Counted from the first letter of the stretch, positions 2,717-8,967 are shown. The stretch: DNA of 64,000 bases from a candidate division WWE3 bacterium RAAC2_WWE3_1 (GCA_000503835.1 CP006914.1:303341-367340), one strand, 5' to 3'. The notes: generated by a model from the sequence alone, not told the origin. Numbers and translations are program-made.

Positions 2717-3166
2717 ATGACCTTCTCAGCAAAAAGAAAAATAGTCCTTATATTGTCGCTCATTTTCGCACTTGCCGCGGGTTTTATTCTTATGGTAAAA
2801 GTGTCTTCACCAAAGTTTAATTACGAAATTAAAACGTCCGTTATAGATAACGCCGAACAAATTCCCTTAAAAATCACGCCCCAAAAAGATTCCATTACAT
2901 TTGAAACAAAGTTTTACGACCTAAAGGGTAATTTTGAAACTGCGCAAATGAAGAGAAAATTAAAATTTCAACCGTCCTTTCCATTTTTAATTGTTGATCC
3001 TAACATCACAGTGGTTTTAAGAGACGCTGAGTTTACCGAAGAGGAAACTTATGTTTATTACGAAATTTTCGGAGCGATAAGCAATTTAAATCCTGGTGAG
3101 TACAAGTTAACAATGGTCGACGGGTTCGGAAATTTAATTGACGAAACTTTTGTTGAAATAAAATGA
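2717..3166 (+). CDS. Membrane-anchored hypothetical protein (149 aa)
   Basis: N-terminal signal-anchor (KRKIVLILSLIFALAAGFILMV). Overlaps the next gene by 4 nt (ATGA), suggesting an operon. Confidence 0.5.
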   Translation: MTFSAKRKIVLILSLIFALAAGFILMVKVSSPKFNYEIKTSVIDNAEQIPLKITPQKDSITFETKFYDLKGNFETAQMKRKLKFQPSFPFLIVDPNITVVLRDAEFTEEETYVYYEIFGAISNLNPGEYKLTMVDGFGNLIDETFVEIK

Positions 3167-3981
3167 GCGAACACGGTAAAAAGGTCGGTTTGGCTTTGGG
3201 CAGCGGAGGCTGGCGGGGTTTAGCCCACATCGGGGTCATTAAAGTCCTCGAAAAGAACGGAATTTCCATTGATTACATAACAGGTTCAAGTGTCGGAGCA
3301 TTGGTCGGCGGTTTGTATGCTTATTACGGAAATATCGTAGAACTTGAGAATATTGTTCAAAGTATCGGGTACCTCGACATGTTTCACGCCTTGTCGGATC
3401 CTAAGGCAGAGCTGGGACTTATAAAAGGAAACAAGTTCGTGGCTTTTCTGGAAGGTTATTTAAAGGGAGCAAAAATCGAAGACCTGAAAATACCTTTTAA
3501 AGCCGCGACAACAGATATTTTGACCGGAGAAACCGTATATCTTGATAAGGGCAATTTAGCTACGGCAATAAGAGCCAGCATTTCCGTACCGTTGGTTTTG
3601 GCACCGGTTGATATCGACGGAAAAAAGCTGGTGGACGGAGGAAACTCAACACCCGTACCTACGGAAGAAGTCAGAAGAATGGGAGCGGACGTTGTGATCG
3701 GAGTTAACCTGTACGGAAACATTTTTCCTCTGACTGCAGCTGTGGAAGGTGAGAAGAAATTGGGCGCACGCGAAGTATTTAGTCTCTCTTATCAAATACT
3801 GTTAAACCAAATGGCTAAAGGGAATTTGAAACACGCGGACATTGCTTTGAACCCCAAGATACCCGAGAGGAGCTTTAACCTCTTTAAGTTTGTAAAAGAA
3901 AAAGGCACGGTTTTGGTTGGGGAGGAAGCGATGGATGGGGAGATGGGGGTTTTGAGGGGGTTGTTGGACTCTCAAAGGTGA
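3163..3981 (+). CDS. Patatin-like phospholipase
   Basis: Oxyanion/Gly-rich GLALGSGGWRG, nucleophile elbow GSSVG (GxSxG), and the family's Asp-containing DGG motif (LVDGGNST). Confidence 0.8.
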   Translation: MSEHGKKVGLALGSGGWRGLAHIGVIKVLEKNGISIDYITGSSVGALVGGLYAYYGNIVELENIVQSIGYLDMFHALSDPKAELGLIKGNKFVAFLEGYLKGAKIEDLKIPFKAATTDILTGETVYLDKGNLATAIRASISVPLVLAPVDIDGKKLVDGGNSTPVPTEEVRRMGADVVIGVNLYGNIFPLTAAVEGEKKLGAREVFSLSYQILLNQMAKGNLKHADIALNPKIPERSFNLFKFVKEKGTVLVGEEAMDGEMGVLRGLLDSQR

Positions 3982-4032
3982 GCCGAAAAGGTAGGATAAG
4001 AAGCTTTAGGTGCTGGTTTGAGTACCGTCAAG

Positions 4033-4041
4033 TGCTATAAT
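4033..4041 (+). promoter_or_regulatory. Extended -10 promoter element (TGCTATAAT) upstream of tRNA-Gln
   Basis: Perfect TGnTATAAT 24 nt upstream of the tRNA 5' end. Conserved in the duplicated copy at 8321-8329. Confidence 0.5.
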
Positions 4042-4064
4042 TTCTTGTGTTTGAGCGCGACTAA

Positions 4065-4138
4065 TGGGGGATCGTCTAACGGTAGGACTGCGGGTTTTGG
4101 TCCCGCCTATTGGGGTTCGAATCCCTATCCCCCAGCCA
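4065..4138 (+). tRNA. tRNA-Gln (anticodon TTG), U1:A72, discriminator G, CCA encoded
   Basis: Acceptor TGGGGGA/TCCCCCA, anticodon stem GCGGG/CCCGC with loop TTTTGGT (anticodon TTG), T-arm TGGGG-TTCGAAT-CCCTA. Closely resembles bacterial tRNA-Gln. Confidence 0.8.
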
Positions 4139-4194
4139 GCGTTTTTGTTGTCATAGCGCCACTTACACAAGCAAATTATTTCGCAATTAAGATA

Positions 4195-5109
4195 ATGTAT
4201 AATTTTCGTATGGCTGATATAGGACAAACTAATGTCACGCTTGTTCAAACTGAAACTGCAGACAAACTTGTTCTAAACGGTATTTTGTCTATACCTAATA
4301 AGAATTCTAAGAACATAGTTCTTCATATACACGGCACTTCCGGAAGTTTTTATTGGAACAGTTTCTACAGCTATTTATCTAAAATGAGCGTTGACCTAGG
4401 ATTAACCTTTCTCGCAACAAACAATAGGGGATCCGGAGTTTATGAAGTAGAAAAAGGAACTGTTTATCATGGAGCTAGTTTGGAGAAATTTGAAGATTGC
4501 CTGTTAGACATAGACGCCTGGATTGAATTCTGCCTAAGCAAAGGGTACACAAATATTATTCTTGAGGGTCACAGTTTTGGTACTGAGAAAAGTGTTTATT
4601 ACCTCGTAAAAGGTAAGTACAAGGATAAGATTAAGGCAGTTATTCTTCTGGGATTTTCTGACACAGTTGGTACGCAACGAAGTTACGAAAAGAAAATTGG
4701 TAAAAATTATTTTGAGGAAGCTAATAAACTGGTAGGAGAAAACAGGGGTGAGTATTTACTCGCAGATTTAGGAGCATTGTGTGGGGAACTTCCCATAAGT
4801 GCACAAACTTATCTTAACTATTTTTCTGAAAACTCCGCGTGCTCTATGGCACTTCCATTAAGAAATGGGCGCGATTTAAAGTATTTTCAAAAGATAACAG
4901 TTCCAATTTTGGGGGTGATTGGTGATAAAGATGATGGGGAATACACAATAATCCCCATTAACGATGCTATCAAACTTCTTAATTCAGAAAATATACATGC
5001 GGAAGCGTATAAAATAAAGGACTGCAATCACGGTTTCGACGGTAAAGAGGTCGAATTAGCTAAAATTGTTGAAACATTCCTTACTCAAAAGATCTTAACA
5101 CTTGAATAA
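4195..5109 (+). CDS. Alpha/beta-hydrolase fold protein (GHSFG nucleophile elbow)
   Basis: The ORF-track start at 4018 runs through the tRNA. A realistic start is ATG 4195 or 4210 (MADIGQ...), with a GATAAT box immediately upstream suggesting a leaderless transcript. Motifs HGTSGSF and GHSFGT. Confidence 0.6.
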   Translation: MYNFRMADIGQTNVTLVQTETADKLVLNGILSIPNKNSKNIVLHIHGTSGSFYWNSFYSYLSKMSVDLGLTFLATNNRGSGVYEVEKGTVYHGASLEKFEDCLLDIDAWIEFCLSKGYTNIILEGHSFGTEKSVYYLVKGKYKDKIKAVILLGFSDTVGTQRSYEKKIGKNYFEEANKLVGENRGEYLLADLGALCGELPISAQTYLNYFSENSACSMALPLRNGRDLKYFQKITVPILGVIGDKDDGEYTIIPINDAIKLLNSENIHAEAYKIKDCNHGFDGKEVELAKIVETFLTQKILTLE

Positions 5110-5418
5110 AGAACATCTAACTAATTCCCATGCCCCCAGCCAATGATACGATATTCGAATCAGATCCTTTGTCATGTTATCATTTTATTAATAAGTCGAT
5201 TTTTGGAAGTGTTCGAGAAATTCCTTGAGTTTTGCCGCGGGTTGTCTGAGGAAAACCCCGCCTTTGTCCGTCATAACAACATCATTCCGGAGAATAATTT
5301 CGTCTATATCCAGATAGATCTTCACACCGTCATTATATACATGCAAAAAATTACAGGCTACTCAACAAACCCCACCACCCCTTCTGTACGATCTTACCAA
5401 TATTACCTTATTACAAAG

Positions 5419-5446
5419 TTGCGGGGTGCCAAATATCTGCTAGTAT
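5419..5446 (+). promoter_or_regulatory. Putative sigma70-like promoter (TTGCGG, 16 nt spacer, TAGTAT) upstream of the precursor-peptide ORF
   Basis: Hexamers with canonical spacing about 50 nt upstream of the ATG at 5498. Weak, by-eye call. Confidence 0.25.
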
Positions 5447-5497
5447 ATCGTCATAACCCTTACAGGGTACCCCCAATACATAGAAAGGAGACAGGTA

Positions 5498-5638
5498 ATG
5501 AAATCCAAGCGCAAGCCCGTAAAAGTAGTACCTTTTGGCGCCAAGTATTTGAAAAAAGTTGCGATGGCAAACAAACGCAGCTCTTCAAATACAAACACCG
5601 GAACCGGCACCTCTCAACCCGACGCCGACCACGATTAA
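5498..5638 (+). CDS. Candidate graspetide (microviridin-like RiPP) precursor peptide, 46 aa
   Basis: Not in the ORF track (too short). SD AAAGGAGA sits 7 nt before the ATG. Translation is MKSKRKPVKVVPFGAKYLKKVAMANKRSSSNTNTGTGTSQPDADHD. The leader carries PFGAKYL, matching the PFFARFL leader helix of microviridin precursors. The C-terminal core is rich in Thr/Ser and Asp (candidate omega-ester donors and acceptors). It lies 100 nt upstream of an ATP-grasp ligase. Confidence 0.6.
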   Translation: MKSKRKPVKVVPFGAKYLKKVAMANKRSSSNTNTGTGTSQPDADHD

Positions 5639-5739
5639 GTTTTAAGGTCTCGTCGTTTTATAGTCAGGTTGAGTATGACTAAGGTGATGGCTACTTAAAC
5701 AGAGCAGTCATCACCTTTTTACCTAAGGAGGCAGTTTCA

Positions 5740-6690
5740 ATGAAGGTTTTGGTAATTACTACGAAACCGGACGCTCATGTGAAAATGGTAGCAAGACACT
5801 TGCCAGAATGGGAATTCCTAATTTTTGATCCGTTTAAATTCCCGTACAGACAGGGTATTACCTACCTATTTGAGAACGGAAAGATGGAGATCACACTAGA
5901 CAAGAAGAACTTGTCAGACGCAGATGTAGTGTGGTTTAGAAAACCCAATTACATCAAGTCTACAAAATTTCCTGTCTGTGAGAATCTCCAGGAATTTGCT
6001 TGGAACAGCTACAAAAGGTCTATAACTTGGCTATATGACCTTCTGCCGAACAGCTTCTGGGTTTCCAGACCTAGCAATATTATCAAAGGTGGAAACAAGT
6101 TGTACCAGATGCAGTTAGCTACAAATCTCGGGTTCAACGTTCCGGACACTTTGGTAACAAACAGCACGGCTGAGGCTGAAAGATTTAGGTCCCGTCTCAG
6201 AGATATTGTTACCAAATCCTTGCACAACGAGTTTGTGGATGACGGTGGGGAACTTTACGCCGTGTACACAACTCGGTTACCTGCTGAGGAGAAGATTGAT
6301 TTTTCAGGACTAGCTATCTCACCTGCAATCTTCCAGCAGATGATAGTCGGGGCTGATATCAGAGTTACCGTTATCGGAAGCAAGATATTTGCCACAGAAA
6401 TAAGCAAAAAGGGCAGTTTGCAAGGTGAAATAGATTGGAGACTCGGGGTCGCCGATAGCAGGAAACTTAAGTATTTTCCGACAACCTTGCCGGAGAATCT
6501 TAATGAGTTGTGTCTTGCTCTAGTGAGACAAATGGGTCTCGAATACGGTGCAATAGACCTGATGAGAGATTACAAAGGTAAATATTGGTTTTTGGAAATC
6601 AATCCAAATGGTCAGTGGGGTTTTGTTGAATTACAAACAGGACAACAACTGTCTTTGGCCATAGCTGATTTATTCAGAAACCAAGTATAA
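5740..6690 (+). CDS. ATP-grasp ligase, microviridin MdnC/MvdD-like (graspetide maturase)
   Basis: Strong SD TAAGGAGG. N-terminal pre-ATP-grasp region (VLVITTKPDAHV...DADVVWFRKP) laid out as in MdnC. C-terminal ATP-grasp motifs (AIDLMRDYKGKYWFLEINPNGQW). Confidence 0.65.
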   Translation: MKVLVITTKPDAHVKMVARHLPEWEFLIFDPFKFPYRQGITYLFENGKMEITLDKKNLSDADVVWFRKPNYIKSTKFPVCENLQEFAWNSYKRSITWLYDLLPNSFWVSRPSNIIKGGNKLYQMQLATNLGFNVPDTLVTNSTAEAERFRSRLRDIVTKSLHNEFVDDGGELYAVYTTRLPAEEKIDFSGLAISPAIFQQMIVGADIRVTVIGSKIFATEISKKGSLQGEIDWRLGVADSRKLKYFPTTLPENLNELCLALVRQMGLEYGAIDLMRDYKGKYWFLEINPNGQWGFVELQTGQQLSLAIADLFRNQV

Positions 6691-6696
6691 AATAAA

Positions 6697-6726
6697 AGAG
6701 GTGACCCCCACCACCTCTTTTTAATT
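6697..6726 (+). terminator. Rho-independent terminator after the ATP-grasp gene
   Basis: AAAGAGGTG-ACCCCCAC-CACCTCTTT hairpin followed by TTTAATTT. Confidence 0.5.
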
Positions 6727-6730
6727 TATT

Positions 6731-7234
6731 ATGAAATATTCAAAAATAGCTAAACAAATAAACGAGTTTGCTAAAAACGATCAGTTACTGAGGAATAGGA
6801 TATTTTCTAAACCTAGTATTAGCGAAGAAGATAAAAAAGCACTTGAGGATTTTGACAAAAATTCATCAGATTTTATAAAAAGTATAGTAAGTGAAATCTG
6901 TCTTCCGACAATAACGAAAGTCGGCAAAAAGGCGTCCTATAACTCATGGCTTCTAGTTCAACACTCTCGAGATTTAAAGTTTCAAAAATCATACTTAGGA
7001 TTATTAAAACAAAATGAAAAAGATATTAATCCTGCAAATATCGCGTACCTGGAAGACCGGGTTCTAATGTACGGGGGTAAACCTCAAATTTATGGGACAC
7101 AGTTTGTTCTGAACAAAAAGACCGGAAAGATGGTGCCGTACACTATTTGGGATGCTGCTAACGTCAATGAAAGACGTTCTAAATATAATCTAGGAAAGCT
7201 GGAGGAGCACATAAAAACTTTTTATTCTAATTAA
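6731..7234 (+). CDS. Hypothetical protein (167 aa), island cargo
   Basis: No recognisable motifs. Lies between the ATP-grasp and methyltransferase genes. Confidence 0.45.
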   Translation: MKYSKIAKQINEFAKNDQLLRNRIFSKPSISEEDKKALEDFDKNSSDFIKSIVSEICLPTITKVGKKASYNSWLLVQHSRDLKFQKSYLGLLKQNEKDINPANIAYLEDRVLMYGGKPQIYGTQFVLNKKTGKMVPYTIWDAANVNERRSKYNLGKLEEHIKTFYSN

Positions 7235-7348
7235 CTCATTACCGTCTCAGTCACATTTCAGGGAACAAAATGGTTCTACACTCGTGTGCGCACATTACCC
7301 AAAAACTAATCTACCCAACAATACAACTACCAGTGTATTATTAAACTT

Positions 7349-8110
7349 ATGCATTCAAAAAACGTTGAGGACGCTGTAACCACAATTAGGTACGAGGAAA
7401 AAGGTTTGCCGCCGGAAGGAGAACCCTCCGTCCCCTGGATTTTAAAAGAACTAGATCCCGGCGCGATAGCAAGCAGGACACTGGTTAAATCCTTTAATTT
7501 AGCCAACGAAGATTTGATACACAATGTTCAAAGACACGAAGCGGAAAGAGGAAGATTATTTTCAGATATTTACGAGCAGATGTTAACGAAACACGGACTT
7601 TCACTCAAAGATTCAAAAGTTTTAGAAGTAGGGGCAGGCCCCGGAGCTGTGTGTTTAGGTTTTCAGGAAGTAGGCGCTAAAGTCGTTAGTTTAGACATTT
7701 GGGACGGTAGGGTTTTTTACAATGACGAGGTTCCTTTTGTAATCGGAGACGGTACCGCTTTACCATTTACCGACAATAGTTTTAATTACCTCTCTTTGAC
7801 TTCGGTGTTACACCACCTACCAATAGAGTATAGAAAAACAATGCTGGAAGAAGCACTAAGGGTTGCGGACACAGTACTTATTCAGGAAGATTGTCTCACA
7901 AGCCCTATTACCAATATTGCTATGAAATTAGTAGACGACGGGGTAAGCGGAGAAGTAGGTACGCATCAAGCTGAATCTCACATGACAAAGGAAGGCTGGC
8001 TTAAATATTTCGAAGATGCAGACTTAAAAGTGTTAGAGACCGTAGACTATCATCCCAAATGGTTGGGTGTGGGTATTGAAAAGGCATTTTTCGTAATATC
8101 CCGCTCTTGA
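7349..8110 (+). CDS. Class I SAM-dependent methyltransferase (Methyltransf_11-like)
   Basis: Motif I VLEVGAGPGAV, acidic-residue beta2 end (VVSLDIWD), motif II/III around VADTVLIQE. Confidence 0.65.
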   Translation: MHSKNVEDAVTTIRYEEKGLPPEGEPSVPWILKELDPGAIASRTLVKSFNLANEDLIHNVQRHEAERGRLFSDIYEQMLTKHGLSLKDSKVLEVGAGPGAVCLGFQEVGAKVVSLDIWDGRVFYNDEVPFVIGDGTALPFTDNSFNYLSLTSVLHHLPIEYRKTMLEEALRVADTVLIQEDCLTSPITNIAMKLVDDGVSGEVGTHQAESHMTKEGWLKYFEDADLKVLETVDYHPKWLGVGIEKAFFVISRS

Positions 8111-8267
8111 ATTCTCCGCAATGTTGCGCTTAATCCGAAAATACCGGAACGTAGCTTTAACCTCTTTAAGAATTTTGTAAAAGAAAAAGCACGATGTTGG
8201 TAGGGGAGGATGCGATGGAGGGGAAGGTGGGGGTTTTGAGGGGGTTGCTTACACCTGAAGGTTGAGT

Positions 8268-8282
8268 GGGGGGGGGGGGGGG
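8268..8282. repeat. Homopolymeric G15 tract
   Basis: 15 consecutive G inside the right-hand repeat copy. The left copy has GGTGAGCCGAAAAGG at the equivalent position. Confidence 0.9.
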
Positions 8283-8350
8283 AGTAGAGAGCGTTTAGTG
8301 CTGATTTGAGCTGCTTCAGGTGCTATAATTTCTTGTGTTTATCCGACTAG

Positions 8351-8425
8351 TGGGGGATTGTCTAAAGCGTTAGGGCTGCGGGTTTTGGTCCCGCCTATTG
8401 GGGTTCGAATCCCTATCCCTAGCCA
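8351..8425 (+). pseudogene. Pseudo-tRNA-Gln (TTG): altered D-arm and 1-nt deletion in the 3' acceptor strand
   Basis: TGGGGGATTGTCTAAAGCGTTAGGGCTGCGGGTTTTGGTCCCGCCTATTGGGGTTCGAATCCCTATCCCTAGCCA. Anticodon arm and T-arm are identical to the 4065 copy. The acceptor 3' strand TCCCTAG cannot fully pair with TGGGGGA. Confidence 0.6.
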
Positions 8426-8493
8426 TTTATCAATTTCCTTTAATAGGGCTTGTAATTTGCCGTTACTATATATATATTTCCTTATTGGTAAGT

Positions 8494-8967
8494 ATGCAAT
8501 CTCAAATTCTTGAAAAACTAAAAAAGGAGCTTGGTAAAGATATCGAAAACGAATCACAAGTGGTATATATCCTTTCGCTGATAAGAAAGCTTCTGGAGAT
8601 TGAAAAACTTAAATCTCGGTATCCTATTTTGAATTTCTATTGTAATTGGACGCTTCACTCTGAGATGACTGATACTGAAGGCAAGTTTGTAAATAATATG
8701 CTAAGAAAATTCATCGAAAAACCAGAAGAAAAGTATAAATTAAGTTTTCATCTTCAGTTCTTGGAACAATTCAAGACGTTCTTAACTAAGAAAAATATCA
8801 CTATACCCACAAAAGACAATTTAGAGAAGTTTAGATATCAGCTTCAAAAGATAATATCTAATACTCCGATATTTGTTAAGACGGGTACCAAATATAAAGT
8901 GGAATTTAATGAACCGCAAAATAAAGGTGAAAGCGGGTTATACATTACAACCATTATTGATCCTTAA
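8494..8967 (+). CDS. Hypothetical protein (157 aa)
   Basis: The ORF-track start at 8398 runs through the pseudo-tRNA. The first ATG after it is 8494 (MQSQILEKL...). No known motif. Confidence 0.45.
   Translation: MQSQILEKLKKELGKDIENESQVVYILSLIRKLLEIEKLKSRYPILNFYCNWTLHSEMTDTEGKFVNNMLRKFIEKPEEKYKLSFHLQFLEQFKTFLTKKNITIPTKDNLEKFRYQLQKIISNTPIFVKTGTKYKVEFNEPQNKGESGLYITTIIDP

Follow-up and report, generated by a model that had tools for sequence, protein, structure and literature searches.

Introduction

Gene clusters for graspetides, the omega-ester peptides that are made by ribosomes and modified after translation (RiPPs), have been described in the candidate phyla radiation (CPR), where they form two branches of the ligase tree and where a leader signature, Phhx(1,2)h, has been defined for the precursors (PMC8939145; Makarova 2022, Biol Direct 17:7). 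Every Branch 2 locus of that survey has a protein of “cluster 23”, and some also have a UbiE-like methyltransferase, an alpha/beta hydrolase or a zincin peptidase. The substrates of most Branch 2 ligases were not found, and the authors suspected that small open reading frames (ORFs) had been overlooked in gene calling (PMC8939145). Fourteen 316-amino-acid (aa) WWE3 Branch 2 ligases, that of RAAC2_WWE3_1 (Table S1 row 1889, 316 aa, Branch_2) and thirteen others, have an empty precursor column (PMC8939145). Here we analyze the locus of this ligase in a 64,000-nucleotide (nt) stretch of the WWE3 bacterium RAAC2_WWE3_1 (hereafter the window, in whose coordinates all positions are given; the source record has 878,109 bp) and describe a 46-aa ORF beside the ligase gene that is probably its precursor peptide.

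Three further sets of graspetides bear on this locus. In the accessible part of a recent survey, proteins of the family DUF6624 are frequent in graspetide groups 18, 20, 23 and 42, and RODEO group 42 comprises 22 clusters, mostly from candidate phyla, of which 82% have DUF6624 in a minimal arrangement of ligase and DUF6624; its representative precursor, a 48-aa peptide from Komeilibacteria, reads MKKNSTPKPLILDRLRQPIEDIYKGGEKAMEGFTTHGTPNDPDSGGTD (Carter et al. 2026, PMC13097080). The graspimiditides (group 13) include fuscimiditide, amycolimiditide and albusimiditide, which consist of a Thr/Ser-rich stem, a loop and an Asp/Glu-rich stem joined by nested Thr-Asp esters; experiments have narrowed the recognition sequence in the fuscimiditide leader down to RPFG. 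The third set is the microviridins (group 1), with the leader motif PFFARFL.

A candidate precursor beside a graspetide-type ligase

On its gene content and its relatives, the locus very probably constitutes a compact graspetide cassette in a CPR bacterium, and the 46-aa peptide is likely to be the substrate that the ligase crosslinks through esters. The elements of the cassette, all on the plus strand, are as follows.

5405..5497, plus strand: cassette upstream region, holding the Shine-Dalgarno sequence AAAGGAGA; homology between two genomic contexts begins here
5470..6654, plus strand: recombination tract covering peptide and ligase, which differs from the otherwise identical strain L163
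5498..5638, plus strand: precursor peptide gene, 46 aa; ORF with an ATG start preceded by the Shine-Dalgarno sequence
5143..5682, plus strand: annotated 179-aa hypothetical protein AHB40247.1 (GenBank), judged spurious; overlaps the peptide gene
5682..5721, plus strand: stem-loop at 5682-5716 with UUUUU directly after it (5717-5721), in the gap from precursor to ligase gene, found by folding
5740..6690, plus strand: graspetide-type ATP-grasp ligase, 316 aa (AHB40248.1); TIGR04187 is its best model
6694..6721, plus strand: terminator-like hairpin 3' of the ligase gene, with a 10-12 bp stem and then a T-run; readable on both strands
6731..7234, plus strand: DUF6624 protein, 167 aa (Pfam PF20329, E 1.4e-18)

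The ORF at 5498-5638 encodes MKSKRKPVKVVPFGAKYLKKVAMANKRSSSNTNTGTGTSQPDADHD, and a strong Shine-Dalgarno sequence lies 7-8 nt before its ATG. Residues 1-27 form a basic leader (10 Lys/Arg, isoelectric point (pI) 11.4) with VVPFGAKYL at residues 10-18, and residues 28-46 form an acidic core (pI about 4.2), SSSNTNTGTGTSQPDADHD. The layout of the core is regular: T32, T34, T36 and T38 alternate with other residues, S39-Q40-P41 follows, and D42, D44 and D46 end the peptide (TxTxTxT-SQP-DxDxD). Variants of the peptide among strains differ solely at S3T, M23R, S28N, S30P, N31T and P41T, so that PFGAKYL, the four Thr and the three Asp are invariant.

A preliminary description of this DNA had pointed to the unannotated ORF with its Shine-Dalgarno sequence as a precursor candidate beside a graspetide-type ATP-grasp gene closed by a terminator, with a 167-aa protein and an S-adenosylmethionine (SAM) methyltransferase downstream and an alpha/beta hydrolase upstream. 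All of these elements were found where it placed them: the ligase gene starts 101 nt downstream of the peptide ORF on the same strand, the hairpin at 6694-6721 closes it, the ligase scores 202.7 bits with TIGR04187 and 46.5 with RimK, and the design of the peptide recurs in relatives. Its account of the core was right in the three Asp and the lack of Lys and Glu, and wrong in counting six Thr/Ser, of which there are 8 (4 Thr and 4 Ser).

The ligase is identical to AHB40248.1 of RAAC2_WWE3_1, named “RimK protein” in GenBank, and the flanking proteins in the public record are AHB40245/46/49/50/51. The NCBI annotation lacks the 46-aa peptide, because the longer, overlapping AHB40247.1 is annotated in another frame (its 179 aa match the ORF 5143-5682 exactly), and in a collection of 15 billion proteins the peptide turns up solely in a few metagenome assemblies of the ENA, as gene calls without a name. 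It was found neither in PMC8939145 or its supplement nor in PMC13097080 and the accessible part of the data of that study, which has no WWE3 entry. The promoter probably lies within the conserved upstream region 5405..5497, where a scan with the sigma-70 consensus gave no promoter site.

Comparison with described graspetides

The locus is like CPR Branch 2 in that the ligase itself is catalogued there, the gene content matches and the leader follows Phhx(1,2)h (PMC8939145); it differs in that a precursor can now be assigned and the cause of its omission, AHB40247.1, be named. The group 42 precursor, as far as the accessible part of PMC13097080 goes, resembles the WWE3 peptide in size, basic N-terminus, a leader motif of Pro and hydrophobic residues, and Thr followed by C-terminal Asp, whereas its leader motif is PLILDRL rather than PFGAKYL and its core lacks the strict TxTxTxT...DxDxD alternation.

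With the graspimiditides the locus has in common TIGR04187 as the best-scoring, though sub-threshold, ligase model, a leader motif (VPFG here) akin to their (R)PFG, and a core laid out as Thr stem, loop and Asp stem. Unlike them, it has no PIMT-type O-methyltransferase, and its predicted loop, S39-Q40-P41, has no Asp-Gly, so no aspartimide is expected. The precursor is 46 aa long rather than about 89 aa (ThfA), the host belongs to the CPR rather than to the Actinomycetota, DUF6624 is the partner, and the ligase falls below the family cut-off. By analogy, the mode of action would resemble that of a small hairpin graspetide of the graspimiditide type without the aspartimide step.

The microviridins are more distant. 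They share an ATP-grasp enzyme with an MvdD-type pre-ATP-grasp region and a leader of Pro and hydrophobic residues that agrees with PFFARFL at 4/7 positions; they differ in using two ligases (MdnC for esters and MdnB for the amide) where a single one is present here, and in a core with Lys (hence a lactam), Glu, a PSD motif and the pattern TxKxPSDx(D/E), all of which the core here lacks. The GNAT and ABC transporter genes usual in microviridin clusters are not among the neighbors. By its relationships the locus is a member of the CPR Branch 2 or DUF6624-associated set and not a microviridin cluster.

These comparisons change the placement of the system. The leader had been called microviridin-type, which is apt in the generic Phhx(1,2)h sense and not as kinship with PFFARFL, the RPFG of the graspimiditides being closer. 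Nor is this a new graspetide class unlike known cores, as had been suggested, since the Thr-stem/loop/Asp-stem design is known and ligase plus DUF6624 is the RODEO group 42 pattern; and the lineage had wrongly been taken as one not known for RiPPs, CPR graspetide clusters having been published in 2022 with this very ligase in the Branch 2 table (PMC8939145).

Peptide and ligase as one exchanged cassette

The ligase allele P0001 occurs in two unrelated neighborhoods. In context A, the type of the window, the order is patatin, hydrolase, peptide, ligase, DUF6624 and methyltransferase. Context B has a MORC-like ATPase gene on the opposite strand, a 98-aa ORF (no Pfam match), an uncalled gap that contains the peptide, and the ligase, followed by DUF6624, DUF4112, PF04228 Zn-peptidase, leucine-rich repeat and Rce1-like genes. 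The two contexts become homologous at the DNA level about 95 nt before the ATG of the peptide. Two metagenomic contigs of context A, L163 and L165, are identical to the window at 2740-5469 and about 6655-8266; all of the roughly 116 differences between the window and L163 fall within 5470-6654, that is, in peptide and ligase, and the peptide and ligase allele of the two contigs is that of context B. Judged from these alignments, a 1.2 kb cassette of peptide and ligase has been exchanged by recombination between strains or loci, and this shared inheritance is good evidence that both genes work together. Outside the exchanged tract lie the methyltransferase, the hydrolase and, in that event, DUF6624.

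Both contexts have DUF6624; in the window it starts 41 nt beyond the stop codon of the ligase. Across a comparison set of 160 loci that encode relatives of the ligase (80 from genomes and 80 from metagenomes) 23 carry it, each time as the immediate neighbor of the ligase gene, and tblastn gave a similar count. The protein corresponds to “cluster 23” of PMC8939145, and its N-terminus resembles the WWE3 members in the cluster 23 alignment. Its conserved residues are R21, W73, Q77, H78, D109, R110, T123 and Q124, and its AlphaFold2 model is confident (predicted local distance difference test score 97) and has no solved structural relative. On this distribution DUF6624 is a conserved partner of the ligase clade.

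The remaining neighbors of context A behave differently. Among 169 loci the methyltransferase occurs in the window-type loci L163 and L165 alone, and the hydrolase in the same two plus one distant match in L092. The methyltransferase matches Methyltransf_11/25/23 and, weakly, UbiE/MenG, as an ordinary class I enzyme would, and gives no match at E <= 0.1 with TIGR04188, the model of the RiPP-associated PIMT enzymes. Between hydrolase and cassette lie 388 nt whose sequence is absent in context B. Both enzymes were considered as core members of the pathway and rejected, being absent in context B with the same ligase allele and lying outside the recombination tract; the suggestion that they supply tailoring or leader removal found no support, as they are confined to one genomic context.

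A longer pathway in this particular strain is the alternative that fares best, and we consider it unlikely. The methyltransferase would methylate the cyclized peptide, for example at Asp or the C-terminus by analogy with the O-methylation of graspimiditides, and the hydrolase would remove the leader or open an ester. Both genes are on the strand of the cassette and closely spaced, UbiE-like methyltransferases and alpha/beta hydrolases are reported in CPR Branch 2 loci (PMC8939145), and the ligase and its PFG leader are nearest to a methyltransferase-associated actinobacterial group. Set against this, both genes are missing from context B and, save for the distant hydrolase match, from all diverged relatives; the methyltransferase is not of the PIMT type; the predicted SQP loop has no Asp; the recombination tract leaves out both genes; and the sequence that separates the hydrolase from the cassette is not conserved. 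We therefore retain the compact cassette of peptide and ligase, with DUF6624 as its partner.

Two of the context B genes just downstream of ligase and DUF6624 (L161, 4980-5786 and 6513-6951), those for the PF04228 Zn-peptidase, which has a membrane segment at its N-terminus, and for the Rce1/CPBP-like protease, are candidates for a leader peptidase and an immunity function. Neither has an equivalent in the window, where no homolog of that Zn-peptidase was found.

Recurrence of the peptide design in related loci

The same design of peptide is found beside diverged ligases. Small ORFs were counted as adjacent when they lay on the same strand as the ligase gene and within 500 nt of it. A leader of Pro and hydrophobic residues with a Thr/Ser-Asp/Glu tail ending in an acid was present in 42/839 adjacent ORFs and in 24/12,852 others. 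The motif [PV]FGxx[FLMYV] marked 24/839 of the adjacent ORFs and 40/13,476 of the controls (odds ratio 9.9, p 5e-14), and about 20 ligase-adjacent peptides keep it. A strict regular expression, PFxAx[FY]L, was too narrow, recovering the near-identical copy in L001, one microviridin-like peptide and nothing else, so looser motif criteria with control ORFs were required.

Beside ligases 33-46% identical to that of the window stand peptides that combine a (V/R)PFGxx(L/M/F) leader with a tail that is rich in Thr/Ser and ends in Asp. The closest examples, with the identity of their ligases to that of the window, are MNTNNQQVVPFGVSFMQPMPVLDASAMGLTRTHTHTGMGDSGQDSETDSD (L081, 46%; motifs MNTNNQQVVPFGVSFM...TRTHTHTGMGDSGQDSETDSD), MKKVEKKIRPFGADLVRKAPVCSPSTGSTKLRTGTPPNTSTDKDS (L086/L087, 43%; motifs MKKVEKKIRPFGADLVRK...TGTPPNTSTDKDS), MGANTLVPFIVQLLVEVPDCVGYYPKTGTATGSDQERGDNDKD (L084, 43%) and MDEEKVVTVPFGAQFMQPMPLLDSCAMSATRTHSHTGLGSDGQDSETDND (L085, 40%; motifs ...VPFGAQFM...TRTHSHTG...DSETDND). 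Other relatives have the leader variants IPFGDQFM, RPFGADLM, TPFGLDLM and QPFGVQFA; the window peptide has VPFG, and L086/87, L100 and L095 have RPFG. In L081 and in L085 a 7-residue loop would be flanked by four donors (TxTxTxT or TxTxSxT) on one side and four acceptors (DxExDxD) on the other. Homologous loci thus do carry small ORFs of the PFGxxL type, in line with the expectation of a conserved PFxxxxL ORF.

This recurrence bears on a second alternative, in which the substrate of the graspetide-type ligase is encoded elsewhere or by a different ORF, the 46-aa ORF having no part in it. The authors of PMC8939145 raised an off-locus substrate for Branch 2 loci without a precursor, and other WWE3 Branch 2 loci were given quite different proteins of about 97 aa, “cluster 342”. 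Three observations make the idea very improbable: the peptide stays with the ligase both in an unrelated genomic context and inside the 1.2 kb recombination tract, the same leader and tail design stands beside ligases of merely 33-46% identity, and the 64 kb window holds no second precursor candidate, the leader motif and an acidic Thr/Ser tail being combined, among its 704 small ORFs, in the 46-aa ORF and one obviously spurious ORF alone. The adjacent 46-aa peptide is accordingly kept as the probable substrate.

Three side observations concern other precursors. The cluster 342 proteins proposed as precursors of 309-aa WWE3 ligases (PMC8939145) begin MKSKRGSTLHKPREQRTFGYD..., recalling MKSKRKPVKVVPFGAKY... 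here, and their remainder looks like a folded small protein, so that their status as precursors may be worth re-examining. In the Verrucomicrobiota locus L020, an ORF at 6723-6920, downstream of a ligase about 33% identical to that of the window, encodes MDNRVPFIARFLSRRPP..., a near-perfect PFFARFL leader of the microviridin type. Eight loci (L023, L072, L073, L120, L124, L128, L131 and L152) have Bacteroidota-type precursors of 95-115 aa upstream of the ligase, which start MKPLIL(D/E)F and repeat a T(K/E)T...(E/S)DSD core unit two or three times; they are graspetide precursors with several cores and belong to another group, one that looks known.

Choice of reading frame

The peptide gene overlaps the annotated 179-aa ORF, and several lines of evidence distinguish the two frames. 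Compared with the allele of a 91%-identical ligase, the peptide frame has 9 substitutions in 141 nt, 5 synonymous and 4 non-synonymous, and all four nucleotide changes in the core (4/4) are synonymous changes at third positions; the same comparison over the peptide-overlapping part of the 179-aa frame splits into 1 synonymous and 8 non-synonymous. Other strains have a 1-nt indel near 5461 that shifts the phase of the 179-aa ORF and produces 164-aa fusions (P0134-P0136) ending in the intact peptide. Context B lacks the upstream two-thirds of the 179-aa ORF and keeps the Shine-Dalgarno sequence and the peptide.

That AHB40247.1 is the true gene and the 46-aa frame within it incidental is therefore extremely improbable: it is a long open frame, annotated in GenBank and recurring in 56 contigs, whereas it matches no Pfam family, its substitution pattern is the poorer of the two, the indel disrupts it with the peptide left intact, and its N-terminal two-thirds are missing where the peptide remains. 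Despite the small sample all lines agree, and they favor the 46-aa frame as the real gene and the 179-aa ORF as spurious.

The ligase family

The enzyme encoded by the single ATP-grasp gene of the window aligns over residues 3-311 with NCBIfam models of graspetide maturases: TIGR04187, the SAV_5884 family, scores 202.7 bits, MvdD 154.3 and MvdC 151.7. The grasp-with-spasm model (71.6 bits), RimK (46.5) and glutathione synthase (< 18) are weaker. Every match in the PDB is a graspetide ligase, from CdnC (7mgv, 2e-31) and 9bou (3e-30) through MdnB/MdnC (5ig8/5ig9, about 1e-27) to AMdnB (range to 2e-25) and, more weakly, PsnB, and the N-terminal region aligns with the MvdD-type pre-ATP-grasp region. 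By these matches the ligase is a member of the MvdC/MvdD/graspetide-synthetase clade, called diverged because its scores fall below the curated cut-offs; it groups with the MvdC/MvdD/SAV_5884 models and the CdnC/MdnC/MdnB structures and not with RimK or glutathione synthetase, the outcome that the preliminary description had made the test of its claim. That it should instead be a primary-metabolism ligase of the RimK or glutathione-synthetase kind with a superficial RiPP likeness, as its GenBank name and its sole above-threshold Pfam match (the RimK ATP-grasp domain, 22.9 bits) might suggest, has next to no probability given full-length matches to graspetide maturases 100-150 bits above RimK, LysX and glutathione synthase, the uniform PDB matches and the aligned pre-ATP-grasp region.

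An intergenic hairpin

A 35-nt stem-loop (5682-5716) followed by UUUUU lies between the stop codon of the peptide and the Shine-Dalgarno sequence of the ligase, and this intergenic region folds at -28.7 kcal/mol (z -2.5). At the same place, L081, L083-L087, L100, L098, L102 and L006 have a hairpin and U-run whose stem sequences are unrelated (z -2.5 to -5.2). A scan of 3900-8600 against Rfam found two tRNAs and no riboswitch or known leader RNA. The hairpin is probably a leaky terminator or attenuator at which most transcripts end after the precursor, and it would leave precursor mRNA in excess of ligase mRNA. Such leaky terminators between precursor and enzyme genes are common in RiPP operons.

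Proposed mechanism and product

We propose the following pathway. The 46-aa ORF would supply a ribosomal precursor whose basic leader carries the recognition motif VVPFGAKYL; the ligase would bind this motif, as MdnC binds PFFARFL and ThfB requires RPFG, and would use ATP to activate the side-chain carboxylates of the core Asp residues, which would then be esterified to Thr hydroxyls. The alternating layout would put the donors along a single face of one strand and the acceptors likewise along a single face of its partner, and because of this TxTxTxT/DxDxD alternation three nested esters are the most economical prediction. We tentatively suggest the connectivity T38-D42, T36-D44 and T34-D46, with T32 left over, as one that may well not be the true one. 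The predicted product is a small beta-hairpin with three nested Thr-Asp macrolactones and a mass change of -54 Da. DUF6624 would be the third conserved component, probably acting on or with the cyclized peptide.

Thuringinin (group 3), which is said to have been described by Roh et al. in 2019, reportedly has three nested esters between Thr and acidic residues in the pattern TxxTxxTxxxExxDxD, with the innermost ring over a 3-residue loop. Its donors are said to be two residues apart, its core to be repeated in long precursors, and its leader and ligase branch to be different. An innermost ring formed by T38-SQP-D42 would thus have a precedent.

Several points weigh against this interpretation. 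Four Thr and four Ser face three Asp, which makes the connectivity ambiguous, and a 3-residue loop containing Pro is tight. At 203 bits the ligase lies below the curated TIGR04187 cut-off of 350, and it does not reach the other curated equivalog and subfamily cut-offs either. The curated precursor models of NCBIfam and Pfam give no match for the window peptide and, for eight related peptides, nothing beyond a weak match of TIGR04186 to the L004 peptide (E 0.31); a profile search thus recovers the ligase as a graspetide maturase and does not recover the peptide. The cassette encodes no protease and no exporter, and the terminator between ligase and DUF6624 makes co-transcription of the latter uncertain. 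The within-species comparison of selection is small, at 9 substitutions. Present-day expression is not guaranteed, because the island in which the cluster lies looks old and its tRNA copy is decaying.

A broader proposal is speculative, and we hold it to be rather unlikely as a whole. The PFG-leader peptides of WWE3 and other CPR bacteria would form a distinct minimal graspetide subclass with a ladder-like beta-hairpin of about 19 residues (TxTxTxT, a loop of 3-7 residues and a C-terminal DxDxD), would need the structurally unprecedented DUF6624 as a new partner or tailoring enzyme, and would owe the exchange of their cassettes to diversifying selection in CPR-CPR or CPR-host conflict.

Genomic island and neighboring features

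The cluster lies within a 4.28 kb segment between diverged direct repeats (78-96% identity), both made up of the 3' end of a patatin gene and tRNA-Gln(UUG). The remaining features of the segment, again on the plus strand, are these.

3842..4138, plus strand: left copy of the direct repeat, with the 3' end of the patatin gene and an intact tRNA-Gln(UUG) at 4065-4138
4210..5109, plus strand: alpha/beta hydrolase (Pfam Abhydrolase_1/DUF1749), upstream of the cassette
7349..8110, plus strand: class I SAM methyltransferase, 253 aa (Methyltransf_11, UbiE-like)
8124..8424, plus strand: right copy of the direct repeat, with a degraded fragment of the patatin 3' end and a decaying tRNA-Gln copy at 8351-8424

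The left tRNA-Gln scores 54.2 bits and the right copy, whose acceptor stem is damaged, reaches only 31 bits where the gathering score is 29; the right-hand patatin fragment is 57% identical over 44 aa and has no ORF. The 4.28 kb island contains no integrase. In related WWE3 genomes the same site, past the patatin orthologue (L171-L173, 4914-7700), holds large serine recombinases, replication proteins of the Phage_CRI/RepSA type, a Toprim primase and HEPN_AbiV, and from these varied mobile genes the site appears to be an integration hotspot. The cluster looks to be sitting in an old island.

Three observations concern details of the annotation and assembly. Several public records (e.g., KKS29663.1) give the hydrolase as 363 aa from a TTG at 4018, reading across tRNA-Gln 4065-4138; the 299-aa form starting at 4210 (AHB40246.1) is plausibly the credible one. 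In the spacer between hydrolase and peptide, a 52-aa ORF on the minus strand (5188-5346) has a protein-like sequence (…DVVMTDKGGVFLRQPAAKLKEFLEHFQKSTY), lacks both a Pfam match and an entry in the protein collection, and may be what remains of a gene. Within the degraded repeat, a stretch of about 14 G at 8262-8275 differs in length from L163 (indel at 8267) and is either a hypervariable homopolymer or an assembly-sensitive site.

Significance

The type of system, its occurrence in the CPR and the association with DUF6624 are already published, and the locus itself is catalogued. New here are the precursor for the WWE3 sub-branch, the annotation artefact that hid it and the PFG leader signature that links it to an actinobacterial group, together with the conserved attenuator-like hairpin and the evidence that a single cassette of peptide and ligase moves and recombines. 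The precursor, the artefact and the family signature (PFG leader, Thr-then-Asp tail and attenuator hairpin) make the system directly testable, and they offer an easy way to retrieve the missing precursors of related genomes. DUF6624, confidently folded and without a solved relative, is singled out as a third component. The CPR bacteria, or Patescibacteria, have tiny genomes and little known secondary metabolism, and each cluster that they have kept offers a hint about the interactions of these episymbionts with their hosts or rivals.

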